A stretch of 64,000 bases of DNA from Patescibacteria group bacterium (GTDB taxonomy: Bacteria; Patescibacteriota; Microgenomatia; UBA1400; PJMF01), in assembly GCA_016861085.1 (NCBI GenBank), contig BOKR01000001.1, positions 668,081 through 732,080 on the forward strand. Direction: 5' to 3'. How positions within the stretch are numbered: position 1 is the stretch's first letter; each line of letters starts with the position of its first letter. The position numbers and the translations under genes were made by a program. This document shows positions 3,590 to 25,651 of this stretch, piece after piece. The notes beneath the pieces are model-generated. The model was given only the letters and a program-made list of their open reading frames with translations, was not told the DNA's origin and did not search any database.

Positions 3590-4801
3590 TTACTTCTCTT
3601 CCTCTGCTAATTTTTCCAAATCTTCCAATCCATCATCAAGTTCTAAATACTCAATTCCCGGTAAACTGCCACCAATGATTCCTTGTAAGTCGCCATACAT
3701 TGTTGAAGTGCTTGCAATTACTTTTTCAATTTCTTTGTCTCTTTTGGCCCAAATCCTTGAGAACGATCGTTTCTCGGTTTCTAAATCTTCTTTCATACTT
3801 ACAAAAGCCATTACAATATTTTCAACCCTATTTCTAAATTGTGGACCAGACAAATATTTGTACAACACATCCATTTTTTCATCTCGACCAACCAAAGATT
3901 GTTTTACCTTTGAAATTTCAACTAATTGGATTCTCAAAGCATTAACCAATGGCAAAACATGGGCGTATGAAACTACCCAAACACCGTTGAGCAACCCAAA
4001 ACTAGTAATACTGGAAGGCAAATTTTGAGTAACCAGAATTGCGATATCAGCTTTGACCAAACCCTGATCACTTTTTAATTTAGATATCCACCCCTCACTG
4101 AACGACTTGGTGTTTTTCGACTCCCAAATAATAGTTCCTGTGTGATTGCCAGTCTTTGCGTTCACTTTTTGGACTAAATCAGCACCCTTAGCACCCGTTG
4201 GGACATCACTAATTTCATCTGTGACAAATGATGAAGCTAGTAACTCTCGCAAATCGTCTTCCTGAACCTCGCCTTGAATCTGCATCGAACCTTGTTCGGC
4301 CTTACGTTTTAAATCATCTACCTGTGAGCGCATCATTTCAATCAGTTTGTCTTTTTCCTGCATTTTCAGACGCTGCGCTTCAGCTTCTTGTTTCTTGGTC
4401 TGCGTAACAATTTTATTTCTCTCCTCATCTAATTTTCGAGCCATTTCTAACTCAATTTTTTGTTCTTTTTCTTCTAATTCTCGAGCTTTTTTACGCAGTT
4501 CTAACTCATGTTTTTCAGACTCTTCTAATTTTTTTGTATTCTCTTGCAATTGCTCTTGTAACTCTTTTAATTCTTTTTGCTGTTTTTCCTGAGCTTTTTG
4601 TTGTGCCACAACCCACAGTTTTTTCTTTTCAACTTCTAATTTTTCACTAATCGATTTAGCCTGTTTTTCAAGCTCTGCTTCATACTCTCTTTTCTGTTTT
4701 TCTAGCTGGTGCTGTAACTTGTGCTCAACTTCTTCAGCCAGAGCTTGGGTAAGTGGAATTTGGTGTCCACATTTGGGACAAGTAATTGTTTGATCTGCCA
4801 T
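3590..4801 (-). CDS. DUF2130-like protein: N-terminal CPxCG zinc ribbon, long E/K/Q-rich coiled coil, conserved C-terminal globular domain
   Basis: N-terminus ITCPKCGHQIPL, about 150 aa of heptad-like EKQ-rich sequence, then a C-terminal domain (GADLVQKV...GTIIWESKNTK...ADIAILVT). This architecture is recalled from DUF2130-family proteins. Confidence 0.55.
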   Translation of the reverse strand: MADQTITCPKCGHQIPLTQALAEEVEHKLQHQLEKQKREYEAELEKQAKSISEKLEVEKKKLWVVAQQKAQEKQQKELKELQEQLQENTKKLEESEKHELELRKKARELEEKEQKIELEMARKLDEERNKIVTQTKKQEAEAQRLKMQEKDKLIEMMRSQVDDLKRKAEQGSMQIQGEVQEDDLRELLASSFVTDEISDVPTGAKGADLVQKVNAKTGNHTGTIIWESKNTKSFSEGWISKLKSDQGLVKADIAILVTQNLPSSITSFGLLNGVWVVSYAHVLPLVNALRIQLVEISKVKQSLVGRDEKMDVLYKYLSGPQFRNRVENIVMAFVSMKEDLETEKRSFSRIWAKRDKEIEKVIASTSTMYGDLQGIIGGSLPGIEYLELDDGLEDLEKLAEEEK

Positions 4802-4930: not shown

Positions 4931-6286
4931 TTACAGCTTAATTTTCTTTGGCCGATCTGAAGATACCTTCCAATTATCACACATGCCATTCCAAGTTTGG
5001 GCATCCATGAGCCAGCCGTCATTCGCTTTGCCAACCTCTTCAAGTAATGCGTGCGTTACTTCCATAGCCCGCCTTGGATTCCTTTGTGCATACTCAAGTA
5101 TCCTTGGCACTAAATTCATTTTTTCTGATTGGAATGTTTCCAGCCTCATCCATGTATTACAACTCCTCATTTTCTCGTTTATCATTTGAACAATTAGCTC
5201 ATCATTCCATGCAAATACCCCATCTAAAACCTTTATTCCTGTGTTTTTAGTTTTCACCCTTGCCGGAGAAAAAACCTTTAGATAGACACCAACTTCTTGC
5301 AAACGAGCAATTAGCTTGTGGTCAGTGAGTGCATCAAGTGTTCTTTTTGCCTCTCTATTGTTTTGTATATCTGCTACTAAATATATATTTTGTGCATAAT
5401 CACCAAGTAAATTATGCACAACTTTCACCATTTCTGGTACAGTTTGTATTGCTTTTGCTCTTTTTACAGTACGGTCTACATTTCTTATAAACTGTTTCCT
5501 GTCCCTAAGAGATGGAATCGCACCTTCCTTTCTTGAGACCAGACTTCGAAGTGTCATAAGAATACCTTGCAAAAAAGTTTCTTTTGCTTGTGATCCTACA
5601 TATCTAGATTGTATTCTTTGCGCAATTGGAAATAGTGCTTCTAAACCCTCAGGGTCATCATCTTTCCGTCTATGGTTTACAACTGCTCGTAGCAAATTTT
5701 GCATAGGTTTACCACCAGTCTTCACAACCCTGGCATAATCAACCACAAATTGTGAATGTGCACCTGACATGCTTTTACGATCATAGATAAGGTGAAACCT
5801 TTCTATAAGTTCAACTAATCTACCCATGCTTTGACAAATCATTTGATCTATAGAACCACTCTTTAATAAACTTAAATCAAGAGGAATTACTAAATTGCCC
5901 CCCGACACCAACCTTTCATACATCTCAAACACCATTCCTGAATGTGTTGCCCCTTCTCCTGACTGATAAGGAATAACAGCATGTTCATGTTTTTTTAAGA
6001 GTGAAAATAAATCAGTTCTGTATTTAGAATTTTCTACTACTTCGGTATGGGCCGGACTACCCCCATGATTTTCTTGAAGATACATAAGCAGTTCTTCTGT
6101 CGTAAAATTTCCCAGCATCTCCCTAATTCTGACTTCATCAGGTTTTTCATAGTACCTAACACGCTTATTCTCAGCTTTTACACCAGCTTCATCAGGGTTT
6201 TTTCTGGAGGTTTCTATCCTCTGTGTAAATCTTTGCATAGCATCTTTCTGCCTATTACAGGCCTTTTTTGCGATTATATTCTGCAT
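4931..6286 (-). CDS. Hypothetical protein (451 aa), no recognisable domain. Local GC looks slightly higher than neighbours.
   Basis: Long ORF transcribed divergently from the 6374 gene. No Walker, HTH or catalytic motif recognised. Confidence 0.5.
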   Translation of the reverse strand: MQNIIAKKACNRQKDAMQRFTQRIETSRKNPDEAGVKAENKRVRYYEKPDEVRIREMLGNFTTEELLMYLQENHGGSPAHTEVVENSKYRTDLFSLLKKHEHAVIPYQSGEGATHSGMVFEMYERLVSGGNLVIPLDLSLLKSGSIDQMICQSMGRLVELIERFHLIYDRKSMSGAHSQFVVDYARVVKTGGKPMQNLLRAVVNHRRKDDDPEGLEALFPIAQRIQSRYVGSQAKETFLQGILMTLRSLVSRKEGAIPSLRDRKQFIRNVDRTVKRAKAIQTVPEMVKVVHNLLGDYAQNIYLVADIQNNREAKRTLDALTDHKLIARLQEVGVYLKVFSPARVKTKNTGIKVLDGVFAWNDELIVQMINEKMRSCNTWMRLETFQSEKMNLVPRILEYAQRNPRRAMEVTHALLEEVGKANDGWLMDAQTWNGMCDNWKVSSDRPKKIKL

Positions 6287-6322
6287 ATTTACTATGTACT
6301 TGACAACCTATTGTTACTTTAG

Positions 6323-6355
6323 TGTCAGAATAATGTCAGATATTTGACATATTGT
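6323..6355. promoter_or_regulatory. Three phased 11-bp direct repeats (TGTCAGAATAA / TGTCAGATATT / TGACATATTGT) in the divergent promoter region. Candidate operator for the adjacent OmpR-type winged-helix protein.
   Basis: Read directly. The 11-bp periodicity matches how OmpR/PhoB-family DNA-binding domains bind direct repeats. The repeats overlap a TTGACA at 6344-6349. A TGtTATATAAT-like -10 at 6353-6363 sits about 10 nt before the ATG at 6374. Confidence 0.45.
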
Positions 6356-6373
6356 TATATAATATGATCCATA

Positions 6374-7579
6374 ATGAAACAAGGACCAAGCATCCACCCT
6401 GAAACAATTGCAAAAATTAGTTCAAGGTGGATCCAAGCAATCAAAGCCCAAGAAAACATACTCTCTGTCTTTCCAAGAGGTGTGGCTGGGTATCGCCGAC
6501 TTGAAAGCCTAATTTCAGATCAAGAACTTCTCAAGAACAACTCAATAAATGTAGAAAAATTTGCTTTCTATTACTACCGAGTTGAACCAACATCTCCAGA
6601 TTTTATTACAACGTTACAAAACCTATTTCAGATTAAAAAGAAAATAGAAAATATTGATCAATGCATCCAAGAAATCAATAAAAAGTACACACAAAATCAA
6701 CAACACATCTTTCTTATTGCTTTTATTGATAGTTGGCTAAACAAGGAAACTACAATTTTACATTTGCTCAGCTTAGTATCAGATAGCTGTCCTCAAATCC
6801 AATTTTTATTGCTCACTGAAGAAAATATACATGACACCGAAAAAATAATTCTGCTTGGAAAATACCATCAGCTCTTTCAAAATATTAGTTACATTCCGCT
6901 CTACTCAAATGAAACGCTCCAATACTTTGTTACTGATTACAGCACCATACTTGAAAAGCCAATCTCAAAAGACCAAGCGCTGAAACTGCTTCAAGTTACA
7001 GGGAAACACATTGCACTGGTAAAAGAGGCTGTGCGATTACACTGTTTGTATGATGTTCCTTTTCAAGAAATTACTCAACAACTGAGCTATAAAATTAAAT
7101 TGAGCCAAATATGGAGTTCTTTTTCAAGAAAGGAACAAACGGTTTTCAACAAAATTTGGAACAACCAAGTACTAGAAACCCAAACTCTAAAAGAAACATA
7201 TATACATTTAAGAGACTTACAATGGTTTGAAGAAACTCCTGAAAAAATACTCTGCTCTGTACCAGGCTTTGAATACTTTATCACTCAAAAAACACCTGTA
7301 AAGCTACTACTACAACTCGGTCATCTCTATATCGGTGATACTATTGCGGATGATAAATTTACACAAAATGAAGCTAAACTTTTAACACTGTTCCTTTCTG
7401 GAACAAAAAATTTATACACAAAAGAGGAACTTTTTGAACAACTGTGGGACAACCCAGAAGAATATTCTGATTGGGCACTTGATAAATCACTCCATCGCCT
7501 GAGAACAAAACTCAATGAATTACAAGTAACTTCCCAAATAGTAACACTCAGGGGTAGGGGGTACTCGTGGCAAGCATAG
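6374..7579 (+). CDS. Uncharacterised protein with a C-terminal OmpR/PhoB-type winged-helix DNA-binding domain and an approx. 300-aa N-terminal domain of unknown type. No P-loop and no canonical receiver aspartates.
   Basis: The C-terminal 70 aa (LTLFLSGTKNLYTKEELFEQLWDNPEEYSDWALDKSLHRLRTKLNELQVTSQIVTLRGRGYSWQA) match the trans_reg_C pattern (…RLRKKL…TVRGVGY…). The N-terminal part is unassigned. Confidence 0.6.
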   Translation: MKQGPSIHPETIAKISSRWIQAIKAQENILSVFPRGVAGYRRLESLISDQELLKNNSINVEKFAFYYYRVEPTSPDFITTLQNLFQIKKKIENIDQCIQEINKKYTQNQQHIFLIAFIDSWLNKETTILHLLSLVSDSCPQIQFLLLTEENIHDTEKIILLGKYHQLFQNISYIPLYSNETLQYFVTDYSTILEKPISKDQALKLLQVTGKHIALVKEAVRLHCLYDVPFQEITQQLSYKIKLSQIWSSFSRKEQTVFNKIWNNQVLETQTLKETYIHLRDLQWFEETPEKILCSVPGFEYFITQKTPVKLLLQLGHLYIGDTIADDKFTQNEAKLLTLFLSGTKNLYTKEELFEQLWDNPEEYSDWALDKSLHRLRTKLNELQVTSQIVTLRGRGYSWQA

Positions 7580-9078
7580 AAAAAAGAACTACACTCTCTG
7601 AATTGTGGAATGCCGCTGATCTCTTACACAGACCAGAGCCACCACAACTTTTGACAAGTCTGTTACTTTCATTCAGAAAAAAAGGACTCATAGACGAAGC
7701 AACGCAATTATTTTTGTTTGATTCGTTGCCCTTGTACTATCTTTTAAAGTCAGATACTGAGTGTCTTAGTTTTTTTGGTGACACTCCAATGATTCCTTTA
7801 TTGGTACAGGCAGGTTTAGCAAGCCATTTTTTTAACACCCCAGAAAATTTGCCAGAAAAACAACAGAAACGTATTGACCAAATAGAATCCTACTTCACCG
7901 TTGGACCAAATGATATTGATCTAAAAATACCTGGTTTAAACAGCTCTAACTGGGAGGCCACGGTAGAATGGTTAACTAATAATTCTCAAAGTATTCAAAA
8001 AACTGAAGCAAAAGAAGAATACCTATGCACTGGCATAGCTATTTGGGATCAAGCACAACAAGTTGAATTTACTGATCGTAAAGTATATGAAAGAAATAAC
8101 TTACTTGAACAATCACCTGAAAAAACAAATGCAGTTCGCGCCACAGTGGTCAAAAATATCGACGGCAATCATGAAACACTTATAGTTATTATTTTAGAAC
8201 TTGGATTTTGTGAACAGAATGCTGTCACTTTAAAAACTTTCAAACCAGTTGCAACAATACATATTTCAAATATTCCGCAACATGACACTCGATTACAAAA
8301 GAATCCAAACTCCACATTGGCTCAAATAACCCCCAAACTGAGTGTACCTGAAACAACTGAAGCAGACTGTACTATAGAATATCCAGAAAACTTTGAAACT
8401 TTACTATTTGAAGAGTTACAATTACTCCTTGATCCGCAAAAACCACTAGAAAGTTTTGTTGCAGCAATTAGTTTTTTTAGAAAAATAAATGTTAAGTTTT
8501 CTTTAGCAAATAAACATATTGAGAGAAGAAGACAAAAATTAGACATCACTGATGCGGAATATGACCTAGTAGTCATAAATCCATTTATTTCTTTTTATTC
8601 ACTTTTTAATACCTTTTTGAATGACCTATCAGAACCAATAAAATTAACCCAAGAATATGATATTGCCCGCTTCTCAAGCGATTTAGCTCTTATTGCAGTT
8701 GCTGTTGGACCAAAAGAATTTAGTAAAGTCCTAATTTCAACAGGATTAGTAAACTATATTGAAAGAAATATTGCAGGCTTTCTAAAACAAGGGATTGAAA
8801 CAAACCCTTTTTGTAAAGGTCTTTTATTTGAAAAGACTCACATAGCCATCAAAAAAAACGAAAATAAAATAAAAGCAAGCTTATTTCCATTCCCAGAGCC
8901 AAATAATTTTGGCAAACAAGAAACACACCCTCTTCCTTGGGATGGTCTGACTGCTCTCATTCAGTTACTCAAGGAGAAAACAGAAATTGAACTTTCACAA
9001 TACCCACTGCTTTGTTTTATCAACCTCTTTTGCGCCCCTTTTTTTGAAGATACTCAAGACCAACAAAACGTTTACTAA
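7567..9078 (+). CDS. Hypothetical protein (503 aa), translationally coupled to the upstream winged-helix gene
   Basis: GTG start at 7567 overlaps the upstream stop (7577-7579) by 13 nt. A G-rich SD-like run (GGGTAGGGGG) lies just upstream. No recognisable domain. Confidence 0.5.
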   Translation: MASIEKRTTLSELWNAADLLHRPEPPQLLTSLLLSFRKKGLIDEATQLFLFDSLPLYYLLKSDTECLSFFGDTPMIPLLVQAGLASHFFNTPENLPEKQQKRIDQIESYFTVGPNDIDLKIPGLNSSNWEATVEWLTNNSQSIQKTEAKEEYLCTGIAIWDQAQQVEFTDRKVYERNNLLEQSPEKTNAVRATVVKNIDGNHETLIVIILELGFCEQNAVTLKTFKPVATIHISNIPQHDTRLQKNPNSTLAQITPKLSVPETTEADCTIEYPENFETLLFEELQLLLDPQKPLESFVAAISFFRKINVKFSLANKHIERRRQKLDITDAEYDLVVINPFISFYSLFNTFLNDLSEPIKLTQEYDIARFSSDLALIAVAVGPKEFSKVLISTGLVNYIERNIAGFLKQGIETNPFCKGLLFEKTHIAIKKNENKIKASLFPFPEPNNFGKQETHPLPWDGLTALIQLLKEKTEIELSQYPLLCFINLFCAPFFEDTQDQQNVY

Positions 9079-9081: not shown

Positions 9082-9324
9082 TTAAGATTCGTCCTTCAGC
9101 TTCCTAATTTTTGCATCGAGCTGATACCCCTTGTGTTGGTATATTTTATCAAGAGGATCTGGGCTGGCAAACTCTTTCTTTAGAAGAGTTTTACGCTCAT
9201 TCATGGCTTTACTCAGCGATTGATTCATTTGTTGAGCTCGTTTTTCCCCGAATGAGGTTGGTTTTGGTGTTACTGACTTTCGTGTAGCTGAACCTAAACT
9301 CAACAATGGTTTTAAAAATTTCAC
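9082..9324 (-). CDS. Hypothetical small basic protein (80 aa)
   Basis: ORF overlapping the stop of the S51 peptidase gene by 4 nt. K/R-rich, no known domain. Confidence 0.35.
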   Translation of the reverse strand: MKFLKPLLSLGSATRKSVTPKPTSFGEKRAQQMNQSLSKAMNERKTLLKKEFASPDPLDKIYQHKGYQLDAKIRKLKDES

Positions 9325-10416: not shown

Positions 10417-11481
10417 ATGACAAAAAAATCTAAAATGCAGGATGCCCCCGAAGAAATCTCAGAAAAATCAGCAAAACAGCAAGCTATCTCTATAGCTATG
10501 CAACAAATTGAAAAAGAATTTGGCAAGGGTTCGGTCATGAAAATGGGTGATTCTTTGCGTAATATGGCAACCATTCCGGTTATTTCAACTGGTTCTTTAG
10601 CATTAAACTTGGCACTTGGTATCGGTGGATTTCCAAAAGGCAGAATCATTGAAATTTATGGACCAGAGGCTTCTGGTAAAACAACGCTTTGTCTACATGC
10701 GATTGCAAATGTACAAAAACAGGGTGGAGTTGCTGCCTTTATTGACGTTGAGCACGCCCTTGACCCACAAAGAGCCGAGAAAATTGGTGTCAATTTAGAT
10801 GAACTGCTTATTTCTCAACCAGATTATGGTGAACAAGCACTTGAAATCGCAGAAAAACTTATTCGTTCTGGTGGTGTTGATGTCTTAATTATCGACTCTG
10901 TGGCAGCGTTAGTTCCAAAATCTGAAATTGAGGGTGAAATGGGTGACCACCAAATGGGCACTCAAGCTCGCTTAATGTCACAAGCTATGAGAAAACTTAC
11001 CGGAGCAATTAGTAAAACTAAAACGCTCGTAATTTTCACCAACCAGATTCGCTTTAAGATTGGTGTCATGTTTGGCTCTCCAGAGACTACTACAGGAGGA
11101 AACGCACTTAAGTTTTATGCTTCACTCAGACTTGATATTAGAAAAGTCGGCAATATTCAAGAAGGTGAACAAATTGTTGGTAGTCGCCATAGAGTTAAGG
11201 TCAAGAAAAACAAACTTGCTCCTCCATTTCAAGAAGCAGAATTTGACATGGATGAAAATGGTATTTCTATGACAGGTGATGTTGTGGACCTAGGGGTCAG
11301 AGAAAATATTATTCAAAAAGCAGGCAGTTTCTATAAGTATGGTGGTGAGGTAATTGCACAAGGAAGAGAAGCTACAAAAACCTATCTCGCTGAAAATCCA
11401 AGTGTCATGAAAAAAATGCAAAAAGAAATTTGGGATACAATTAAAAAAGAAAACAAAATTGAGGAACCAAAAGAAGAATAA
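10417..11481 (+). CDS. recA: Recombinase RecA
   Basis: Walker [11 protein letters not shown], the RecA signature [15 protein letters not shown]2-loop region. 354 aa. Confidence 0.95.
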
Positions 11482-11502
11482 ATTTAACGCTGAAACTACT
11501 TA

Positions 11503-11536
11503 GCACCTCGAGTATACTCGGGGTGCTTTTCTCTTA
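11503..11536 (+). terminator. Rho-independent terminator after recA: GCACCTCGAG-TATA-CTCGGGGTGC then TTTTCTCTT
   Basis: 10-bp stem (one G-U pair) and T-rich tail, seen directly. Confidence 0.6.
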
Positions 11537-11542
11537 CTGGCA

Positions 11543-11571
11543 TTGACTTAGAACCTATCTACGAGTACAAT
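11543..11571 (+). promoter_or_regulatory. Sigma-70-like promoter (TTGACT-17-TACAAT) that would give rny a leader of about 250 nt
   Basis: Hexamers read directly at 11543-11548 and 11566-11571. Confidence 0.45.
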
Positions 11572-11828
11572 GTGTACTGTGCTGAAGTCTTTAAAGAAAG
11601 AATTAAGCAAAATAACTTAGGTATATTGGAAATTATTACAAAAATAAATAATGAGTGATACAAAAAACACAGCGAGCGGCTCTTCACCACAGTAAATACT
11701 ATCTGTGGTAGATAACCGTACCTCACAAAATAGCACTCTCATTCTTCCGCCTACACAAAGTTATTTTCTTAAAGCTTGATTTTAGCCAATTTATTAGTTA
11801 GTAAATTTGGAAAAATAGTAAGGAATAT

Positions 11829-13436
11829 ATGTCATTTTTTGGAAATTTATCAACGTTGTTTGGACCTACACAGCAAGGCAAAAGACAACAAACAGTAGGA
11901 GGACAACCTGCACAGCAAGGAGCTGCAAAACCAAAGTTTCAAAAACATAAACGAAACAAAAAACAGCACCAACAAGATGTCAGACCTCAACAAGTACAAG
12001 TAGTTACCCCAGTAATTCCTGAGAATATTCAGCAGATCAGAAGAGATGCCGAAGCAAAAGCTCGCGAAATCATTGTTGAGGCAAAGTCAGAAGCATTACA
12101 ATTAAGAAGTAAAGCTGAGCAAGAACAGCGAGAGCTTGGCAAACAGCTTGAACAACAACAAAGAATCCTACAAGCAAAACTAGATCGTATTGATGAGCGA
12201 CTAGAAGTCATTAGTACTAAAGAAGAACAGCTTGAAAAAAAACGCTTTGAAATTGTTGAACTCAAACAAGACGTAGAAAAAGAAAAAGAAAAAGTTCTCA
12301 AAGAACTTGAAAAAGTTTCAACGTTCACTCGCGATGAAGCAAAAGAAGAACTCCTGCAACGACTTGAGAAAAAATTGAGCAAGGAAACCGCTCTCTTTAT
12401 TCGACAAAAAGAAGAAGAAGCTCACACTGAAGCAGATGAGAAAGTCAAAGAAATCTTAATTGATGCCATGAAACATGGTGCTACAGAATATGTACCTGAA
12501 TACACTATTTCAGTTGTTACTCTTCCATCAGAAGATGCTAAAGGTAAAATCATCGGTAAATCAGGGAGAAACATTAATGCCTTCGAAAGAAGAACTGGTG
12601 TTGATGTTGACCTTGATATGTCACCAACCGAAGTTCGTCTTTCTTGTTTTGACCCAGTCAGAAGAGAAATCGCTAGAATTTCTTTGGAACGATTAGTTAA
12701 AGATGGCCGTATCCAACCAACCAGAATTGAAGAAGTTGTCGACAAAGTTGAAAAAGAAATGGCGAAAACCACCCTCGAAGCTGGTAAAAAACTCTGTCAC
12801 GACGTTGGTGTTTTTAACTTGCCAATCGACTTAATGAAAATGCTTGGAAAATTTAAATTTAGATTTTCTTATGGTCAAAACTTGATTGCTCACACTTTAG
12901 AAGAGACTAAAATTGGTATCAAGATTGCTCACGAACTTGGTCTTGATGTCAACACAGTTAAACTAGGGTGTTTACTTCATGACATTGGTAAAGTTTCCGA
13001 AGAAACTGAAGGATCTCACGTTGAGCTCGGTATTAAAATTGCCAAACGCTATAACATGCCACAACCAGTCATTGACTGTATTGCCCAACATCACGAGGAT
13101 GAACCATTCTCTGGACCAGAACAGATGGCTGTCTACATTGCCGATGCAATTTCAGGAGCTCGACCAGGTGCTCGATATGAAAACTATGACGAATACGTTA
13201 AAAGATTGCAACAACTTGAAGAAATTGCAATGCAGTACAAAGAAGTTAAACAAGCATATGCTATTCAAGCTGGACGTGAAGTTCGTGTTCTATTAGAACC
13301 TGAACAATCCAAAGACGACGACGTAAAATCATTAAGTCTTAAAATCAGAGACGAAATCAAGGAAAAAGTTACCTATCCAGGAACTGTTACCGTTACTGTT
13401 ATTAGAGAAACACGTGGATCTGAAATAGCAAAATAG
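11829..13436 (+). CDS. rny: Ribonuclease Y (KH + HD domains); N-terminus is Q/K-rich and lacks a transmembrane helix
   Basis: KH region IIGKSGRNINAFERRTGVDVDL and the HD-domain motif GCLLHDIGK…HHED. 535 aa. Confidence 0.9.
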   Translation: MSFFGNLSTLFGPTQQGKRQQTVGGQPAQQGAAKPKFQKHKRNKKQHQQDVRPQQVQVVTPVIPENIQQIRRDAEAKAREIIVEAKSEALQLRSKAEQEQRELGKQLEQQQRILQAKLDRIDERLEVISTKEEQLEKKRFEIVELKQDVEKEKEKVLKELEKVSTFTRDEAKEELLQRLEKKLSKETALFIRQKEEEAHTEADEKVKEILIDAMKHGATEYVPEYTISVVTLPSEDAKGKIIGKSGRNINAFERRTGVDVDLDMSPTEVRLSCFDPVRREIARISLERLVKDGRIQPTRIEEVVDKVEKEMAKTTLEAGKKLCHDVGVFNLPIDLMKMLGKFKFRFSYGQNLIAHTLEETKIGIKIAHELGLDVNTVKLGCLLHDIGKVSEETEGSHVELGIKIAKRYNMPQPVIDCIAQHHEDEPFSGPEQMAVYIADAISGARPGARYENYDEYVKRLQQLEEIAMQYKEVKQAYAIQAGREVRVLLEPEQSKDDDVKSLSLKIRDEIKEKVTYPGTVTVTVIRETRGSEIAK

Positions 13437-13459
13437 TGTACACTTGAAAGAGAATATAT

Positions 13460-13678
13460 ATGAATAACCTATGGTTAATCGTTCAAGCGATTGTATCAGT
13501 ACTTATTATCACTGCAGTTTTGCTGCAAACACAAGGTGGCGGAATTGGCCCAGCTTTTGGCGGTGGCGGTGAGAGTTATCATACTAGAAGAGGTATAGAA
13601 AAAGTGCTGTTCAATGCAACAATAGTACTTGTTGCCTTATTTGCCGTTGCTTCTATTGCTTCGCTTGTAACTAAATAA
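13460..13678 (+). CDS. secG: Preprotein translocase subunit SecG
   Basis: Two TM segments flanking a Gly-rich loop LLQTQGGGIGPAFGGGGES, typical SecG pattern. 72 aa. Confidence 0.7.
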   Translation: MNNLWLIVQAIVSVLIITAVLLQTQGGGIGPAFGGGGESYHTRRGIEKVLFNATIVLVALFAVASIASLVTK

Positions 13679-13695
13679 CGAACACAAAGGTTTAC

Positions 13696-15096
13696 ATGAG
13701 AAAACTGTATTGGTATTTAACAACATATGCCAAAAAACATGGAGCAATCCTAATTACTTCTGTTGTTATAGCCATAGCAGTTTTCTCGTTCATAGTTCCA
13801 TCACTCATTTCGGTCATTGAAAATAAAAAAACACAGTATGTTGGTCTTATCGGTGATTTCAATATCGACACCTTGCCCATAGAAGTTACTGGAAAACTGA
13901 GTGCCGGCTTAACGAAAATCAATCCGGACGGTACTGTTGAGCCATTACTCGCACAACGCTGGAGTACAGAACAAGAAGGAAAAACATATCGATTCATCTT
14001 GAAAGAAGGTATTTTCTTTCGAGACGGGCGCGAACTAACAACACAAGATATTACTTATTACTTCCCAAATGTTGAAACGATTGTTACTCCTAACGATATT
14101 GTTTTTAAATTACCTGACTCGTTTGCTCCATTTCCTGTTGCTGTTTCACAACCAATTCTGCGAAAAGAGAACCAAACACATAAGGTGTTATTAACAAGAC
14201 CAACACTTATTGGGATTGGTCCATATTCACTCACTGATTATGAAAAAATCGGTAACAGAATTTCAGAAGTTCGCCTTGAGGGTAGAGATGACAAATACAT
14301 ATATAGATTCTATCTAACTGAAAAAGATGCAGTTACCGCATTTAAACATGGTGAAGTAGATTTATTACCTGGACTCTCACAGGCATTTGACATTGTTGAT
14401 TGGAAATCAGCTAAAGTTACAAAAGAAACAGATTTTAGCAAATATCTTGCGGTCTTTTTTAACATGCGTGAGCAAAAGTTCACAAAAAACATACGACAAG
14501 CTCTCTCATATGCTATTGATAAACCAACAGATGAATCTAGAGCTTTAGGTCCAATAAGTCCTGAATCATGGGCATATTTACCTGCTTTAAAAACTTATGA
14601 CAAAGATATTGAAAGAGGCATTGAAAGAATTCTAGACGAACCTCCTCAGGAAAAGCTTGAGTTCAACCTAACTACCACTTCAACATATCAACCTATAGCT
14701 GAAGAAATTATTAAGCAATGGGAAGAGTTTGGTCAAAAAGCATTTGAATCATGCCAGGCTTCTAGCACGATTAAAGAAAAATCAGTTTGTGAGAATATGA
14801 AAATCAAAACTAGCTTAAAAATCACAAACTTCCCTGATACAAGTAACTTTGAGCTGTTGCTCATTGGCCAAGAGTCGCCACCAGATCCTGACCAGTATCA
14901 ACTCTGGCACTCAGGAGAAAGCACCAACTTTACCGGATACAAAAATACTCGTATTGATAATTTGCTTGAAAAAGGCCGACAGACTACTAATTTTCAGGAA
15001 CGCAAAGAAATTTATCAAGAATTTCAACAGTTCTTTTTGGAAGATGCACCTGCCATTTTTATTAAACACTTAGATTCGTATACAATTTCACGGTAA
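13696..15096 (+). CDS. ABC transporter substrate-binding protein, family 5 (peptide/nickel type), N-terminally membrane-anchored. No cognate permease or ATPase adjacent.
   Basis: N-terminal TM helix, then the SBP_bac_5-like region LAQRWSTEQEGKTYRFILKEGIFFRDGRELTTQDI. Confidence 0.65.
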   Translation: MRKLYWYLTTYAKKHGAILITSVVIAIAVFSFIVPSLISVIENKKTQYVGLIGDFNIDTLPIEVTGKLSAGLTKINPDGTVEPLLAQRWSTEQEGKTYRFILKEGIFFRDGRELTTQDITYYFPNVETIVTPNDIVFKLPDSFAPFPVAVSQPILRKENQTHKVLLTRPTLIGIGPYSLTDYEKIGNRISEVRLEGRDDKYIYRFYLTEKDAVTAFKHGEVDLLPGLSQAFDIVDWKSAKVTKETDFSKYLAVFFNMREQKFTKNIRQALSYAIDKPTDESRALGPISPESWAYLPALKTYDKDIERGIERILDEPPQEKLEFNLTTTSTYQPIAEEIIKQWEEFGQKAFESCQASSTIKEKSVCENMKIKTSLKITNFPDTSNFELLLIGQESPPDPDQYQLWHSGESTNFTGYKNTRIDNLLEKGRQTTNFQERKEIYQEFQQFFLEDAPAIFIKHLDSYTISR

Positions 15097-15101
15097 AAAA
15101 G

Positions 15102-15302
15102 TTAATTTTCTTCAGGAATTACCAACCAAAGTAAAACGTATGGAATTATTCCTGGTAGACCACCTGGCATGAGAAGCAACACCCAGAGCACCCTAACTAG
15201 GGTGACATCTATATCAAAATAGTTTGCCAGTGCTTGGGCAACTCCACCAATTTTTTTACCTTTTTTTGGTAAGAGTAATCGTTTGTTTTTTAGATTTTTC
15301 AT
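15102..15302 (-). CDS. PspC-domain small membrane protein
   Basis: GGVAQALANYFDIDVTLVRVLWVLLLMPGG…LLWLVIP matches the PspC domain pattern (GVCGGLAxYFGIDPTLVRxxFVLL). Confidence 0.6.
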   Translation of the reverse strand: MKNLKNKRLLLPKKGKKIGGVAQALANYFDIDVTLVRVLWVLLLMPGGLPGIIPYVLLWLVIPEEN

Positions 15303-15311
15303 ATGCTGCTA

Positions 15312-16358
15312 TTATAACCTACGCATCTTCTTACGCAAAAGTTCAAATGCAGCAGTCACTGTATATTTTGCTGAAAGCGGAACATCCTGAGCATGCAAGT
15401 ATTCAACTGGAGTACCACCAAATCCAGTCTTAAACATTGTTACTCCCGCAAAGCGGTGGTTTACTGCACCTTCAGGAGCTATGCCCCAGAAATTATACCG
15501 TAAACAGCCTCTAGCTTTCGCTTCTAAAATCGCTGCCCACTGACATGCATAGCTGCCAGGGAGTTTTGCATTCTCATCAGTTGAAATTCCGTAGTGATAT
15601 ACTGCTTCTTTATTGTAGAAAATAACAAACGCCGAAGCTAATAGCTTTCCTTCATAATATGAGTGAAATAACACTACTTGATCGTCTTGTGCAAATGCTT
15701 TGAATTGCTCATGTAAAAACTCATATGAAAACGGTACAAATCCATGGTGCTTAGCGAGTGCAACTTGGTTATCATAAAAAGCCTTGATTTCTTCAGGATT
15801 ACTGGTCTTTTCAACAATAATTCCCAGACTTTGCGCTTTACGAATTGAAGATCGGTGATTTTTTCTCATTTGAGCAAGTAATGCATCATTAGACAAAGAT
15901 AAATCCAACTGTAACGTTAAATCTGCTGTTAGATGCATTGGTGAAAGGCGCGCCCCTACAACAGAAATAACCTTCTCCTGCAATTCTGGGGTATTCATTT
16001 CCTGGGGGCGAAACCGAATAAAATCTACCTTTTGCTCTTGGGCAGTAATTTTGATTTGCGTAAAAACGTATTCAAATAATTCTTGATTGCTCCAATCCAT
16101 AATTGGACCACCAGCAATCGTAACATAGTTTCCGCGCTTGGCTTTTTCAACAACAAGTTGTGCTAAAGCAACTGGTTTTTCTTGTTCTAAAAACAACAGC
16201 CGTACTACTGTCTTTCCTAAATTATGATGAAATACACCCCAGTTCCATGACTGTAAAAAGTTAGCCTCTGCAAAATGAGCAACAGCATTTTCCCACTGTT
16301 CTTTGGTCGCGTCAGTGATGATAGTTATATTCATACATTCTCCAGTAGTATGGTACAA
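15312..16358 (-). CDS. FemAB-family (FemX-like) aminoacyl-tRNA-dependent peptidyltransferase
   Basis: 348 aa, FemAB-family pattern (FLQSWNWG…, MRKNHRSSIRKA, YNFWGI) without the coiled-coil insert, i.e. FemX-like. Confidence 0.75.
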   Translation of the reverse strand: MYHTTGECMNITIITDATKEQWENAVAHFAEANFLQSWNWGVFHHNLGKTVVRLLFLEQEKPVALAQLVVEKAKRGNYVTIAGGPIMDWSNQELFEYVFTQIKITAQEQKVDFIRFRPQEMNTPELQEKVISVVGARLSPMHLTADLTLQLDLSLSNDALLAQMRKNHRSSIRKAQSLGIIVEKTSNPEEIKAFYDNQVALAKHHGFVPFSYEFLHEQFKAFAQDDQVVLFHSYYEGKLLASAFVIFYNKEAVYHYGISTDENAKLPGSYACQWAAILEAKARGCLRYNFWGIAPEGAVNHRFAGVTMFKTGFGGTPVEYLHAQDVPLSAKYTVTAAFELLRKKMRRL

Positions 16359-17614
16359 ATTTTCTTGGCAATAGCTGGCGTTATTTCTCTGTGAGTTGGG
16401 AGATTTAACACCTGAGTTGCTAAAAGCTCAGCATGAGGGCAACTTTTATTTTGATACATTGTCTTACACTGATAACTACCACAATCAACCGACCAACGAT
16501 ACCAACGATCAGAAACATAGATTCTATTTTTCTTTAAAGCAGCAACTAATTTTTTCACCTGAGTGTCATCTGTACAACGAACACTAAACCGTAAATTACT
16601 TGACCGTTCTAACTCTTCTTTCGTAAACAAAAGTTGAAGTCCACCTTGTTTCAGGCTGCTCTGGCTTAACTGCTCAAAATATATCTGTGCAATCTTTTTT
16701 CGATGCTCTATTTGTTGTTCCAAACCTTTAAACTGCAGTACTGCTAGTTTCGCATACGCTTGATGCATCCAGGTCATTGTGTCTGTTTTACTCTTAATTG
16801 GAGAGCCTAATAACCCGAGTTTTTTTGCCAAAACAAATACCACTTTCCCAAAACCAAAATGGTGTGTTTTACGAATAAAGGAAGTTAGATCTGGGTATAG
16901 TAAATCTTCATATACAATAGAAAATGGCAATTTTCCAACCATTTTCTTCACATCTATCAACCGTTCATTTCGCTCATCATCCATCACTTTGAAAACTACA
17001 GCTCCACCAGAAATTGCATCAATAATCTTGTCTTTACCAAACGAAAAAATTACTGCATCTGCTAGTTCTCCCAGCATCTTACCAGTACTATCAATACCCC
17101 CAATACCCTGGGCTATATCTTCTATCATTAGTAGACCGTGCGTATTACACCACTTTCTGATAGCAACACTATCTGCAGGAATTCCCAGACTATGCTGAAT
17201 TAAAACTGCTTTTGCTTGTGGATACTTTTTGTACGTCTCAGCAATACTCTCAACTGTCAAATTGGTTGAATCTCTTGAGATATCTGCATAGACTGCCTTC
17301 ATTCCAGCTCGCAACATTCCCTCTTCAACTGCATAACAACTAAAAGCTTGTGTAATAATCTCACTACCAGGTTTTAACAAAACTCTACAACAGGCTTCTA
17401 TAGCATCCCTGCCTTTGTACAAGCTGAGAACTTCACCACCATATGTTTGCGCTAAGTGTCTTTCTAGTTTTTTAACGTCAGATTTTCTTGAAAAGAAAAT
17501 ACTCCACAGACTTGTTGAAACGAATTTTAGAGAGTAATTAGAGCCTAAACTATTAAATATTGATTTCATATTATTCAAAGTATTGCTTTGCCCAAGCCGG
17601 CATTCTTCCCTCAA
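16331..17614 (-). CDS. DegT/DnrJ/EryC1/StrS-family PLP-dependent aminotransferase (sugar aminotransferase-like)
   Basis: PLP-lysine region VIFSFGKDKIIDAISGGAVVF (family pattern SFHxxKxxxxGEGG). Overlaps FemAB by 28 nt. An N-terminal extension is present if the first ATG is used. Confidence 0.65.
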   Translation of the reverse strand: MREECRLGQSNTLNNMKSIFNSLGSNYSLKFVSTSLWSIFFSRKSDVKKLERHLAQTYGGEVLSLYKGRDAIEACCRVLLKPGSEIITQAFSCYAVEEGMLRAGMKAVYADISRDSTNLTVESIAETYKKYPQAKAVLIQHSLGIPADSVAIRKWCNTHGLLMIEDIAQGIGGIDSTGKMLGELADAVIFSFGKDKIIDAISGGAVVFKVMDDERNERLIDVKKMVGKLPFSIVYEDLLYPDLTSFIRKTHHFGFGKVVFVLAKKLGLLGSPIKSKTDTMTWMHQAYAKLAVLQFKGLEQQIEHRKKIAQIYFEQLSQSSLKQGGLQLLFTKEELERSSNLRFSVRCTDDTQVKKLVAALKKNRIYVSDRWYRWSVDCGSYQCKTMYQNKSCPHAELLATQVLNLPTHREITPAIAKKICTILLENV

Positions 17615-19067
17615 TAACTATCAAGTCTTCCTTATCTAAAGTTGAAATTATTTCTTGCAATTGTTCCTTTGTAGTCAACAGCTCAGCACCAAAATAGCTT
17701 TGAAACTCTTCTTTTCCAGGCTCACCGACAAAAACGACGACATCAAAAACTTTTTTTGCATCTCTAGCTAATTCTAGATGAATTTCCCTTGAATCTTTAC
17801 CAAGATCAACAATACCTGGGGTCACCAATACCTTTTTATTTGCTTTCAGTGATCTTGCTAGAGTAATCATGGCTGAGAAACCCTTCGGATTACTGGTATC
17901 GCCATCATCAATGATTTTCACACCACTGGCAAGAGCGTAGGTTAAAACAAACTTATCATCAGGAGAGAAAGACTCAAGTGCATCAAGTATTGCAGCAGTA
18001 CCCAGTTTAAAGTGCATCGCTGTTGTAATTACGAGATGAACTAATTCTTTATACTGAACCCCAACAAGTTGTGTTCTAACAGTTTGTCCATTCCAAGAAA
18101 ACTGTAATTTTCCTTCTTGATTGACCCGAGCGTTTTCAATTTGGACAGCATTAAATTCTGGGCCGACAGCAATCAATTTTGCGTCATTTTTAGTATTACC
18201 AGTATCAACTATTTGTCTAGTCTGCTCGTCATAAACATTACAAATAACAGTAGCTTTTTGCGGCAGGCTAGCAACAAGTTCTGCCTTAGCCTTGATAATT
18301 TCCTGAAGACTACCAAACAACCCAACATGCTGTTTTGCCAAACCAGTGATAATTGCCATATCAGGTTTAACCCACTTAGCTAATTCTTTGATTTCACCTT
18401 TTTTGTAAGCTGCATATTCAATAATGGCAATTTCTTCACCGTTATATCCTGATACTACACTCTGAGCTACTGAATATTTAGTATTGTATGATTTTGGTGT
18501 CACAAACACTGAGTATTTTTTGCCAAGCACATGTGCTAACAGTAGCTTTGTAGAGGTCTTTCCGTAGCTACCAGTGATTCCAATAACCGTAGGTTTCTTC
18601 GTATCTAACAGAGCTTTTGCTTGCAATAATTTTTTATATGTTTGCACATATGCCAATACTACAGTAGGCACAGCGCTCAACATAACTAAGAACGGAATAG
18701 TTACTAAATATAATACTAAAAGTAACAAATATGCCGTATATCGATACCACAACGGGTATGGATACCATTGCAATAGGAACTGTGTAATAAATTCCATTCC
18801 ACCCCGAAGAAATAAAAAGGACAACAATGCAAATATAGCCGAAAGCAACAGTGATCTGTGGGTCATTTTTGGTCGTTTTAAACCTGTTTTAGAAAAATCA
18901 GATTTTTTTGGCAAAATTCGCAACAACTCGCGGATGCCCTCACCTGAAAGTAAAAATAATGCAACTCGATCAAATCGATATTCCTTTTGCTGTAAAACAC
19001 CAATCCAACGAAGTGCTCGTACAAAAAAAGAGGCTAATAAAAAAAGTAGTACTAGAGTAGTTTTCAT
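17571..19067 (-). CDS. Mur ligase family protein (MurF-like ATP-binding and C-terminal domains) with an approx. 150-aa N-terminal polytopic membrane region
   Basis: P-loop VIGITGSYGKTSTKLLLAHVL, Mur-ligase central and C-terminal patterns. Residues 1-150 are hydrophobic (3-4 predicted TM). Overlaps the aminotransferase by 44 nt. Confidence 0.75.
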   Translation of the reverse strand: MKTTLVLLFLLASFFVRALRWIGVLQQKEYRFDRVALFLLSGEGIRELLRILPKKSDFSKTGLKRPKMTHRSLLLSAIFALLSFLFLRGGMEFITQFLLQWYPYPLWYRYTAYLLLLVLYLVTIPFLVMLSAVPTVVLAYVQTYKKLLQAKALLDTKKPTVIGITGSYGKTSTKLLLAHVLGKKYSVFVTPKSYNTKYSVAQSVVSGYNGEEIAIIEYAAYKKGEIKELAKWVKPDMAIITGLAKQHVGLFGSLQEIIKAKAELVASLPQKATVICNVYDEQTRQIVDTGNTKNDAKLIAVGPEFNAVQIENARVNQEGKLQFSWNGQTVRTQLVGVQYKELVHLVITTAMHFKLGTAAILDALESFSPDDKFVLTYALASGVKIIDDGDTSNPKGFSAMITLARSLKANKKVLVTPGIVDLGKDSREIHLELARDAKKVFDVVVFVGEPGKEEFQSYFGAELLTTKEQLQEIISTLDKEDLIVIEGRMPAWAKQYFE

Positions 19068-19762
19068 TTCAAAAATGCTCCAATAACTGCAGCTGTTTCT
19101 GCTTGATGTGTAAACTGTGGAGAGTGTCGAGCTCCTTTAACAATATATAGTGTACTGTTTTGTAGTAAAGATTTAAATTGTTTTGCAAATTTTACAGGGG
19201 TAGTCATGTCATGTTCACCCCAAACGATAAGGGTAGGACACAGAATTTGCGGCAAATAATCTAATATTTCAGTGTTGATGACATTTGCCATAGTCTGACG
19301 TTGTGTTTCGTTTGCTTTAAGGTAGTCTTGTTCGCGTGCCAATTTATATAACACGTTCCTAAAAAATTCATGCTTAAAAACTGGTTTTCCAAGCACAGCT
19401 GCTGTTTTAAAAATTGAGCGTTTGAGTACTTTTTTAAATGATCTATCAATCATTCCTGCACTATCTATCAGAATAAGTTTAGTCATTCGTTCTGGATTTT
19501 GAGCCGCGAATTGGCAAGAGATCTGCCCCCCAAAGGAATGACCAAGCAAAATGACAGACTCATTTTTGGGCAACTGACTTTCCAACCAAGAAACATAAGA
19601 ATCAAGTGTCCACACTTCATCTAGTTTTGTAGTTAAACCAGGAATTGGTAAAAATTTGCTTGCTATGCCCTGCTCTTGTAGTAACTCACGAAATGCTTGC
19701 CACTTTTTTTCGTTGGCTTCATCAATCGCCCAGCCATGCAAAATATATACCGTTTGTTTCAT
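19064..19762 (-). CDS. Alpha/beta-fold hydrolase
   Basis: Nucleophile elbow GHSFGG, 232 aa. Stop overlaps the Mur ligase start (4 nt). Confidence 0.7.
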   Translation of the reverse strand: MKQTVYILHGWAIDEANEKKWQAFRELLQEQGIASKFLPIPGLTTKLDEVWTLDSYVSWLESQLPKNESVILLGHSFGGQISCQFAAQNPERMTKLILIDSAGMIDRSFKKVLKRSIFKTAAVLGKPVFKHEFFRNVLYKLAREQDYLKANETQRQTMANVINTEILDYLPQILCPTLIVWGEHDMTTPVKFAKQFKSLLQNSTLYIVKGARHSPQFTHQAETAAVIGAFLK

Positions 19763-19818
19763 ACGCTCGCTCTAGTATCTCAAGAGTACCCGAAAGATTC
19801 AAGGCTTAAGTTCAATAG

Positions 19819-19846
19819 TTGAAACTTTTTTTGATCTGCCTATACT
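19819..19846 (+). promoter_or_regulatory. Promoter TTGAAA-16-TATACT ending 8 nt before the cyclophilin ATG (near-leaderless transcript)
   Basis: Hexamers read directly at 19819-19824 and 19841-19846. ATG at 19855. Confidence 0.5.
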
Positions 19847-19854
19847 AAGCTAGT

Positions 19855-20520
19855 ATGAAATCACTACACAAACGACTACTCTTTTCAGCTGTTATAATAT
19901 CAACATCAGTACTCTTGTCTGGATGTACTGATCCAGCAAAAAAGGGCTCTCAGGACATCAATTTATCAGATATCAGTGTCTCAAACACAACAAATACTAA
20001 TACAGAAAGGCCAACTACCATGCCAGAAGTTACATATAAGAACCTTGCAGATTTTAAAGAAATTCAAGCCACTCAAGCAGTTTTTGAAACAACCAAAGGC
20101 ACACTTGTCATGGACTTATACCGTGATAAAGTACCGCTTACAACTGCAAACTTCCTTAATTTAATTGATGAAGGCTTTTACGATAATATTGTGTTCCACA
20201 GAGTAATTCCTGGATTTATGGCACAAGTCGGTGATCCATTCACCAAAGATCCAAGTAAACCCGAGTCACAATGGGGCATGGGTGGGCCAACCTACAGAAT
20301 TATGGATGAGTTTGATCCAACCTTAAAACATGATGCTGCTGGTATTCTTTCTATGGCAAATGCCGGACCAAATACTGGAGGAAGTCAAATTTTTATTACA
20401 TACGGCCCACAGCCACATCTTGATGGAAAACATGCTGTCTTTGGCAAATTAGTTGAAGGCATGGATGTTCTGGAATCGATAACTGTTGGTGACAAGATCA
20501 TCAAAGCCTCGTACAGATAG
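19855..20520 (+). CDS. Cyclophilin-type peptidyl-prolyl cis-trans isomerase, lipoprotein (lipobox LSGC)
   Basis: Cyclophilin motifs HRVIPGFMAQVGD and SMANAGPNTGGSQIFIT. Signal peptide with Cys lipobox. Confidence 0.85.
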   Translation: MKSLHKRLLFSAVIISTSVLLSGCTDPAKKGSQDINLSDISVSNTTNTNTERPTTMPEVTYKNLADFKEIQATQAVFETTKGTLVMDLYRDKVPLTTANFLNLIDEGFYDNIVFHRVIPGFMAQVGDPFTKDPSKPESQWGMGGPTYRIMDEFDPTLKHDAAGILSMANAGPNTGGSQIFITYGPQPHLDGKHAVFGKLVEGMDVLESITVGDKIIKASYR

Positions 20521-20523
20521 ACA

Positions 20524-22029
20524 ATGAAAAAAACCATTCTCAGTTTAGTCTGCCTGCTTCTTGTTGGCGTGGTTTTGTTGGGGCTGGTACTTGTAAAAAA
20601 TATCTCTGGTATTAAAGCTTTTTCAAACCAGCTTCGATCACTCACCAAGCAACCACAATCTGATCAAGTTATTTTTGATCTTCGCACACTGCTTGAACTT
20701 AATGTTGTCGTCTCAAAACTCTCAGAAAATAAATTACTGTCTGTATTCCTAAAAAAAGACCAAAAGGAATTATTGGCCCGTTTGCAAACCATATCATCAG
20801 ATGTAGGAAGTGTTTTGTCAGAACTAAGCGACCAAGAACAACGCTGGTTATTTATATTTCAAAACAGTAATGAACTGAGAGCAACCGGTGGGTTTATGGG
20901 TTCATATGCTATTGTTGAAATTAATGAAGGAAAAATTATTTCTATCAACACTGAAGATATTTACGACGCTGATGGCCAATTTAACGGATATTTCGAAGCA
21001 CCATCTGGGGTAAAAGAATATTTAAGTAGTGGTAAAGGTTTACGGCTCCCAGACGCTAACTGGCATATTGATACTGCCAAAAGTGCTGAGCAAATTTTAC
21101 CGTTTTTCGCATGGGGAAATAAACAAAATGTGAAAGGCATTGTCTTTGTGAATCTTGAGTTTGCAAAAAAATTGTTAGAGTTTTTGGGACCAATTGAACT
21201 TACTGATTATAATACCATTGTGACTCAAGATAACCTTGATGAGGTTTTGCGTTCAAGAAGAGATGATTTCTTTCCTGGCAGCACACAAAAAAAACATATG
21301 CTCTCTCAACTTTTAACGCAAGTAAGACTAAAAACAACTTCACTGAATCCTGAACAGCTCATTTTACTATTAGATTTTATTCAAAATGAAATCTCTCAAA
21401 ACAACTTGCAATTTTATTCAAATAATCAGACTATTGATGCAGTTTTTGAAAAAAATAAGATGCGACAAATTGTAAATATTCCGGATAATTCTGAGTTTCT
21501 TTATCTTGTAGAATCAAATGTTGGTATCAACAAGGCGAATAAAGCAGTTTCAAGACAGGTATCTATAACAAAAACTCCAAACCAGAGGACCGTTACAATC
21601 GACTTTACCAATAACAATAAAAGGCCAACAATTTCTAAACTTACACAGATAACTGAGCTAGAAACAACTTCACCGGCAACTCAAGAAGCAAAAATAAATA
21701 ATCACCTTGCATATGTGAATTACCAAAGAGTTGTTGTGCCAAAAAATTGGGAACTTACTTCCGTCTTATTCCAAAACACCACTGTTGAGCCTATAGATCA
21801 AGAACTGTTGATTATTGATGGTGTCGAATTTAAACAAATCGGCTTTTTAGTTGTCATCCCTGAAGAAAAAAATGCTACTGCACAAATTTTATTCAATGTT
21901 CCAGAGAGCCTAGAGCAAATCTATATTCAAAAACAACCAGGACTTCCTGCAACAAACTATGTTCTAGAGTATAATCAGAACCAAGAAACCCACACAATAA
22001 CAAACAACCTACTATTGAAATATCCATAA
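20524..22029 (+). CDS. Hypothetical membrane-anchored extracytoplasmic protein (501 aa). I tentatively recall the [11 protein letters not shown] motif as DUF4012-like.
   Basis: N-terminal TM helix and a large extracytoplasmic domain. Starts 4 nt after the cyclophilin stop. Confidence 0.45.
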
Positions 22030-22030
22030 T

Positions 22031-25645: not shown

Positions 25646-25651
25646 GTTACA

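Follow-up and report, generated by a model that had tools for sequence, protein, structure and literature searches.

The intergenic region ahead of an uncharacterized 401-aa protein gene holds five 11-bp units in helical phase (positions 6300-6354), and this array is probably the operator of the adjacent 401-aa regulator, set within a bidirectional promoter. The DNA examined is a 64-kb stretch (the window) of the 1.17-Mb contig of a BroJett025 MAG from an uncultured Patescibacteria group bacterium; coordinates refer to the window unless a related locus is named. Repeats, phase, conservation, exclusive association with the regulator gene, a PhoB-like domain in the encoded protein and the promoter geometry can all be observed directly.

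To our knowledge, almost nothing has been established experimentally about gene regulation in the Patescibacteria (CPR), whose genomes encode few regulators. The locus provides a testable circuit, made up of a 55-bp array that has a defined consensus, of two predicted promoters and of one candidate binding protein; a solved PhoB-DNA complex is available for comparing the residues with which this protein would read DNA. The regulator, its partner and the divergent target are all annotated as hypothetical, and each belongs to a very small family; an operator would thus offer a handle on a lineage-restricted cassette. By analogy, the cis-element would work like a Pho box or a SARP box, and the regulatory principle is not a new one. 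The regulator itself is an unannotated, rare architecture in an under-studied phylum, and the locus would be a case of the one-turn direct-repeat grammar of OmpR/PhoB domains being used by a protein of non-receiver architecture.

The repeat array

The first-pass annotation of this DNA had listed three 11-bp direct repeats between the divergent genes, and these are found at 6323 (TGTCAGAATAA), 6334 (TGTCAGATATT) and 6345 (TGACATATTGT). Five columns are invariant among them (T1, G2, C4, A5 and A7). Two of the repeats had been credited with 8 matching positions of 11; the pairwise identities are actually 7, 7 and 6. The repeats and their 11-bp phase are real, but they are merely the core of a longer array of five units at 6300-6354, as TGACA at 6301 and TGTTA at 6312 continue the same phase upstream.

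The five units are described here in a frame that begins at 6300. Unit 1, the distal box (TTGACAACCTA, 6300-6310), is in 11-bp phase with the others and is followed by a weak unit 2 (TTGTTACTTTA, 6311-6321). Units 3 (GTGTCAGAATA, 6322-6332) and 4 (ATGTCAGATAT, 6333-6343) are assigned to the plus strand and correspond to repeats 1 (6323-6333) and 2 of the earlier list; unit 5 (TTGACATATTG, 6344-6354), formerly repeat 3, is a degenerate direct or inverted unit, left like units 1 and 2 without a strand. The internal units are of the TGTCA type and the two outer ones read TGACA. Since the TG-W-CA core is nearly self-complementary, the orientation of a unit rests on one base. Unit 5 can equally be read as inverted: its TTGACA pairs with the TGTCA to its left, and units 4 and 5 together make an 18-bp near-palindrome (ATGTCAGAT joined to ATTTGACAT, 6333-6350) in which 16 of 18 positions are palindromic.

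The phase stands out from the background. The five TG(A/T)CA units score 24/25 at period 11, compared with at most 15/25 at any other period from 7 to 15, and the period-11 self-similarity score of the 87-nt intergenic region was matched by 1.7% of shuffles. The pattern TGWCA-N6-TGWCA-N6-TGWCA occurs once in the 64-kb window and in none of 100 shuffles, and TGWCA pairs at spacings of 4, 5, 7 or 8 are absent from the window. A search for further copies of TGTCAGA-N4-TGTCAGA, suggested earlier, gave no second one within the 64 kb. The only other WGWCA-N6-WGWCA pair in the window, at 8530-8545, lies inside the 503-aa coding region, stands alone instead of belonging to an array and may be due to chance. 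An RNA element at the array was considered and excluded: there is no Rfam match, and the predicted fold is no better than that of shuffles (z -0.4).

Conservation in related loci

Seven loci with a complete upstream region were collected by protein look-ups and by using the conserved neighbouring DUF2130 gene as an anchor. Five are syntenic orthologous loci (the window, L027, L001, L026a and L030), and two belong to a paralogous cassette (L008 and L026b, the latter with the same sequence as L018) whose regulator is ~30% identical to the window protein. Closest to the window is L027, whose partner protein is 65% identical to that of the window; the regulators of L001 and L026a are 53% and 40% identical to the window protein, and that of L030 has 402 aa.

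Conservation of the repeats in orthologous intergenic regions had been set beforehand as the test of the proposal, and they are kept in the five orthologous and the two paralogous loci. In all seven, TG(A/T)CA-type units in 11-bp phase precede a regulator gene, with regulators 30-53% identical to the window protein, and each locus has at least two repeats of a 6-7 bp core at a 10-11 bp period, the arrangement expected of an OmpR/PhoB-type operator. Three-unit arrays were compared with shuffles in five loci and were significant in each (p <= 0.0013). When the window (6296-6363) is laid against L001 without gaps, 48 of 68 positions are identical (71%), against a background of 19.4 +/- 3.7 and 35 at the next best offset; such conservation of non-coding DNA next to regulators that are 53% identical points to a sequence-specific reader. 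Across ~400 kb of related loci, phased triples are confined to the front of regulator genes and are missing from relatives that lack the cassette, such as L009. For the distant family members P0003 (L002) and P0004 (L007), which have 27% and 25% identity, no upstream phased repeats beat shuffles (p 0.16-0.9), and repeat-based autoregulation accordingly should not be generalized to the whole family.

The units differ in what is conserved. CTTGAC in unit 1 is the best-conserved block of the region, identical in 6 of the 7 loci and present also in L030, where MAFFT offsets it by one unit. Unit 2 is conserved only at its G (mostly TG), the equivalents in the other loci being TTGCGA, TTGGAA, ATGTCT, ACGTCA, ATGACT and CTGACA. 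The GTC of unit 3 is invariant in the seven aligned loci, and the TGTCA of unit 4 (AGTCA in L026a) begins exactly 24 nt upstream of the -10 hexamer in 5/5 orthologous loci. The consensus of the 32 units taken together is TTGTCATATTA, in which a TGTCA-type core precedes an A/T-rich spacer. Every unit (32/32) has the G at position 3 and 28/32 have the C, while A/T makes up at least 94% at positions 8-11.

The most telling locus is L030, which has four almost perfect tandem 11-mers (AGTCCTTATTT, TGTCCTTATTT, TGTCATTATTT and TGATATATTAT) and six units in total, one 11-bp unit more than the window, and its last TGTCA is still exactly 24 nt from TATAAT. Gain of a whole unit with the phase kept is as expected if the 11-bp unit were the functional module.

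This bears on another reading of the DNA, in which the near-palindrome at 6333-6350 is the operator of a symmetric dimeric repressor, either the 401-aa protein bound head to head or an unrelated HTH protein, that blocks the -35/spacer region, and the units upstream are incidental. The 16 of 18 symmetric positions speak for it, as does TGTCA-N6-TGACA, which occurs nowhere else in the window and is matched exactly in L027 and L001. Both head-to-head and head-to-tail binding are possible for OmpR (PMC3973317). In addition, a position within the spacer would be suitable for repression, and negative autoregulation is common. However, symmetry outside the GTCA core decays (6/9 in L001, 4/9 in L026a). 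The arms are exact in three orthologs and match 4/5 in one arm in the other two, the right arm in L030 being TGATA, and in the paralogs they are 3 nt apart rather than 6. Units 1-3, the 11-bp phase and the direct-unit gain in L030 are left unexplained. We consider a symmetric repressor site improbable as the main function; that a dimeric protein could use the palindrome of units 4-5 nevertheless counts against the operator reading.

In one of the related loci the regulator gene is interrupted. At L027 3818-5013 (Woesebacteria) a frame change upstream of ~4402 leaves it as two ORFs (199 and 182 aa), and the operator is almost identical to that of the window despite the split, which may be an assembly error or a recent pseudogene.

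Predicted promoters on both sides of the array

The earlier annotation had also described a TTGACA at 6344-6349, a -10 element downstream of it and an ATG about 10 nt further on, all of which are present: the -10 is TATAAT at 6358-6363 (plus strand), with TA.AAT invariant in the seven loci, and the ATG at 6374 begins 10 nt past it. The transcript of the regulator operon is predicted to start near 6370-6371, with a leader of ~3 nt. Between the -10 and the ATG there are 10-11 nt in the window, L027 and L001 and 6-7 nt in the paralogs; this short distance implies a leaderless or near-leaderless mRNA.

No canonical -35 element lies 16-18 bp from the plus-strand -10 in the window, and unit 4 occupies the expected -35 position. 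We rejected the TTGACA at 6344 as the -35 of the regulator because it is only 8 nt from the conserved -10. The same hexamer (TTGATA in L030) lies exactly 8 bp from TATAAT or TACAAT in 5/5 orthologs, and no acceptable -10 occurs 16-18 nt downstream of it in the window before the conserved N-terminal codons. The paralogs differ: their proximal TTGACA is separated from TATAAT by 17 bp and makes a perfect -35. At L008 7478-7515 and L026 5252-5290, TTGACA-17-TATAAT is followed by an in-frame ATG 6-7 nt past the -10, which implies truly leaderless mRNAs; mechanical ORF calls for these paralogous regulators begin at an upstream ATG within the promoter.

On the other side, the divergent gene occupies 4931-6238 (minus strand) and most likely starts at the ATG at 6238, giving a protein of 435 aa. 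It had been taken as a 451-aa gene, as the mechanical ORF runs to 6286, but that length is over-called by 16 codons (6239-6286): the equivalent extension in L027 has stop codons, the L027 gene call begins at the equivalent of Met17 of the 451-aa ORF, and in the window the extension contains the minus-strand -10 of the divergent gene itself. This -10 (TATAAT, 6273-6278, minus strand) has a TAnnnT hexamer conserved in the seven loci, 26-27 nt from the distal unit in each, and a start at ~6266 (minus strand) is predicted. The array therefore fills the space between two back-to-back promoters. Regulation of the divergent gene from the repeats had been proposed as well, and the conserved placement of this -10 makes that plausible; we give co-control of the divergent gene by the array about an even chance, judging by the layout of the elements.

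The promoter elements could also be taken as sufficient in themselves. In that case there would be no dedicated regulator, and overlapping sigma-70 elements (two TTGACA and two TATAAT) together with phased A/T tracts would bend the DNA of a bidirectional promoter. TTGACA is indeed the -35 consensus, the paralogous TTGACA-17-TATAAT is a perfect promoter, and the A/T-rich spacers are in helical phase. Yet the TTGACA of the orthologs is never 16-18 bp from a -10 on the same strand, and the near-universal G and C of the internal TGTCA units play no part in sigma-70 recognition or in bending. The level of non-coding conservation with L001, seen against the divergence of the regulators, again suggests a reader of specific sequence, and we regard a promoter lacking such a reader as very unlikely.

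Two further site types were considered for the near-palindrome. A LexA-like site has the form CTGT-N8-ACAG and a CRP-like site the form TGTGA-N6-TCACA; in each case the spacing or the core bases misfit, no such regulator is encoded nearby, and both were rejected.

Just inside the regulator coding region, at 6392-6432, there is an 18-nt inverted repeat with 83% complementarity. The hairpin (-15.9 kcal/mol, z -2.4) would begin 18 nt past the start codon of the near-leaderless mRNA. It is partly kept in L027 and absent in L001, L026a and L030.

The 401-aa regulator

The regulator gene (6374-7579, plus strand; GIK84022.1, BroJett025_06440) is annotated as hypothetical. The protein consists, in order, of a degenerate P-loop/AAA+-like domain, a helical domain, a small winged helix and a C-terminal OmpR/PhoB-type winged helix (wHTH). 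This last domain, which had been recognized from the sequence earlier, spans aa 329-398 (7358-7567, plus strand), according to NCBIfam and PDB sequence matches: its best NCBIfam matches are PhoB models, and its best PDB sequence matches are the DNA-binding domain of E. coli PhoB (3T72 and 1GXP), ungapped over 68 residues. An OmpR/PhoB winged-helix protein that could be cognate to the array is thus encoded directly beside it.

PhoB contacts its site through Arg201, which hydrogen-bonds the guanine, through Thr194 and Val197, both of which meet thymines, and through Arg219, which reads the spacer (PMC3973317). Arg201, Arg203, Thr217 and Arg219 are conserved in the wHTH of the regulator family, and Trp184, Asp192 and Glu177, which lie in or flank the activation loop, are largely retained. 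Every family member has Trp at the position of PhoB Arg193 and Ala at that of Thr194, and a recognition-helix signature particular to the family, DWA(L/I)DK, is conserved. Lys at the Val197 position is found in exactly the five proteins whose promoters carry arrays. We think it likely that the 401-aa protein physically binds the array.

The ~320-aa N-terminus is of a different kind. In the structural model it forms a five-strand alpha/beta domain like those of Clp1/Grc3 and clamp-loader delta, followed by the helical and winged-helix domains; no Walker A motif is visible by eye in the 401-aa protein. A search of the protein for a receiver (CheY-like) domain with its phospho-acceptor gave no Response_reg match, and without a receiver domain the regulator is not a response regulator. 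AfsR and EmbR align with it over ~90 residues only. There is no Pfam match to a BTAD in the 401-aa protein, and its domain order is reversed; on both counts it is not a SARP.

The family is small: among 5.8 billion proteins we found 5 full-length relatives and 4 that match in the wHTH alone. A two-member regulator alignment scanned against genome and metagenome collections gave no match.

Comparison with known systems

In E. coli promoters controlled by PhoB, the Pho box lies 10 bp from the -10. The box consists of CTGTCAT, four A/T and CTGTCAT, and is bound by tandem head-to-tail wHTH domains (PMC4832192). The array resembles it in having a 7-bp TGTCA-type core and a 4-bp A/T spacer every 11 bp: set against CTGTCAT(W)4, 31 of the 32 units agree in 7-10 of 11 positions (unit 3 of the window in 9) and one agrees in 6, compared with 4.4 +/- 1.5 for random 11-mers. 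Like a Pho box, it replaces the -35 of a promoter with a good -10. The wHTH domain is, by sequence, most similar to that of PhoB, keeping Arg201, Arg203, Thr217, Arg219, Trp184 and Asp192. The differences begin with the number of units, five to six instead of two to four, and with the outer units, in which the T of the core is an A. From the proximal hexamer to the -10 there are 8 bp, not 10 (~18 bp from the last TGTCA), an offset in geometry of ~3 bp. Unlike PhoB, the regulator has Ala for Thr194, Lys for Val197 and Trp for Arg193, and in place of a receiver and phospho-acceptor it carries the ~320-aa degenerate P-loop/AAA+-like N-terminus.

The likeness is close enough that the array might be a genuine Pho box, in which case PhoB (or PhoP) of the host would bind it, the cassette would belong to the phosphate-starvation regulon and the wHTH protein would be a target instead of the binder. 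The unit matches and the 11-bp period fit this, as does the overlap with the -35 position of a promoter that has no -35. Against it, the occurrence of arrays follows that of the regulator gene exactly: two paralogous cassettes have them, and neither the DNA around nor relatives lacking the cassette do. The cassette itself is also variable, being missing in L009. No pst, phoU, phoB or phoR gene is found in the 64-kb window, so that there are no phosphate genes near the array. The spacing to the -10 does not agree with that of E. coli, and the regulator family has its own recognition-helix signature. A host Pho box therefore appears unlikely, somewhat as the symmetric repressor site does, although the possibility that the host's own PhoB could read such a unit counts against the operator reading.

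A second point of comparison is the SARP family, including AfsR, of Streptomyces. By the promoter rule for SARPs, the -35 is poor and direct repeats recur at 11 or 22 bp, the 3' one being 8 bp away from the -10; the OmpR-type domains cover the -35 position as well as the spacer and make the connection to sigma region 4, and the wHTH of AfsR is coupled to, and controlled by, a STAND NTPase module (PMC10936776). The array agrees with this rule in its 11-bp repeats, in the 8 bp to the -10 in 5/5 orthologs and in the poor -35, but the two paralogous loci are at 17 bp rather than 8. The proteins also differ, as the OmpR-type domain of a SARP is N-terminal and followed by the BTAD, whereas the wHTH of the regulator is C-terminal.

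The third system is the Chlamydia regulator ChxR, an atypical, phosphorylation-independent member of the OmpR/PhoB family that binds direct repeats in its own promoter and keeps a degenerate receiver fold. The regulator described here is similarly an orphan OmpR/PhoB wHTH protein whose own promoter contains direct repeats and whose gene has no kinase gene beside it; its N-terminus differs in being AAA+-like and not a degenerate receiver fold.

Proposed mechanism

Under the operator reading, each 11-bp unit would be read by one C-terminal PhoB-like winged-helix domain of the 401-aa regulator, with the protomers aligned on one face of the DNA. Units 2-4 would be bound head to tail, and the outer TTGACA units would be degenerate or inverted; because they are TGACA and not TGTCA, strictly head-to-tail binding leaves them out. 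As the regulator has no receiver domain, assembly would presumably be driven by the N-terminal degenerate AAA+/P-loop-like domain, perhaps with the 503-aa partner as well.

Units 4-5 cover the -35 position and the spacer of the regulator promoter, where the bound protein could replace the missing -35 contact and activate its own operon. Positive autoregulation is favoured by the 11-bp repeats, the 8 bp to the -10 and the poor -35, as in SARP and PhoB systems; going by this geometry, activation has a probability that we would put just short of even and is the more likely outcome. Repression at the regulator promoter is the less probable of the two but a serious alternative, since unit 5 lies inside the spacer and the TTGACA of the paralogs is a perfect -35, at which a bound protein should obstruct RNA polymerase. 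In the divergent promoter the distal unit is placed at about -39, and the same array may for this reason act on the divergent gene too.

A more specific version is offered tentatively and, in our view, is on the unlikely side. The regulator might be a SARP-like 'sigma adaptation' activator outside the Actinobacteria, built in the reverse order with a degenerate AAA+/STAND-like module first and a PhoB-like wHTH last, which polymerises on the five to six phased sites and, with the 503-aa partner, switches on a variable three-gene cassette. If true, it would be among the first concrete transcription circuits predicted for the ultra-small Patescibacteria.

The cassette and its surroundings

The partner gene (503 aa, 7567-9078, plus strand; BroJett025_06450, hypothetical) is described as co-transcribed with the regulator gene on the basis of the ORF layout. 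Its start overlaps the regulator stop by 13 nt, and it always comes after the regulator in the orthologs. It has 5 relatives among 5.8 billion proteins, and its predicted structure (pLDDT 49) is of too low a quality for its fold to be searched. For the divergent protein there are 7 relatives among 1.84 billion representatives, and homologs have the same back-to-back arrangement with the regulator gene in L001, L026 (two copies), L027 and L030. Searches of Pfam, NCBIfam, PADLOC and PHROGs with the three cassette proteins gave no matches beyond the wHTH domain; an origin of the cassette as a defence system or from a phage was set aside, there being no PADLOC or PHROGs match other than to that domain.

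The divergent, regulator and partner genes form a three-gene module (4931-9078), a variable cassette flanked by the DUF2130 gene on one side and by the S51 peptidase and recA genes on the other. In L009, where the cassette is missing, the S51 peptidase gene directly neighbours the DUF2130 gene. The module of L008 is paralogous and points the other way, and in L026 the two modules lie next to each other, with one inverted. The DUF2130 protein (3590-4801, minus strand) is 81% identical to that of L001, compared with 34-53% for its neighbours. Its N-terminus carries a CxxC motif like that of a zinc ribbon, it contains a long coiled coil that gives Rad50/SbcC-like matches, and PADLOC matches it to LmuB (5e-8). 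A NUDIX gene is next after the DUF2130 gene.

The gene content of the window is CPR-like, with RNase Y beside recA, FemAB, DUF4012 and a lamin-tail-domain (LTD) protein. The closest MAGs (L008, L009 and L010; recA 89-90% identical; compared with window positions 10417-28147) are titled 'uncultured Pseudomonadales bacterium'. These titles look mis-assigned, and we doubt them because of the gene content and because window proteins are identical to records of Patescibacteria group bacterium. Between the 503-aa and S51 peptidase genes there is also an ORF of ~75-80 aa (9082-9324, minus strand) with no family match, and a gene of similar size is called at the equivalent position in L027, L029, L030 and L031.
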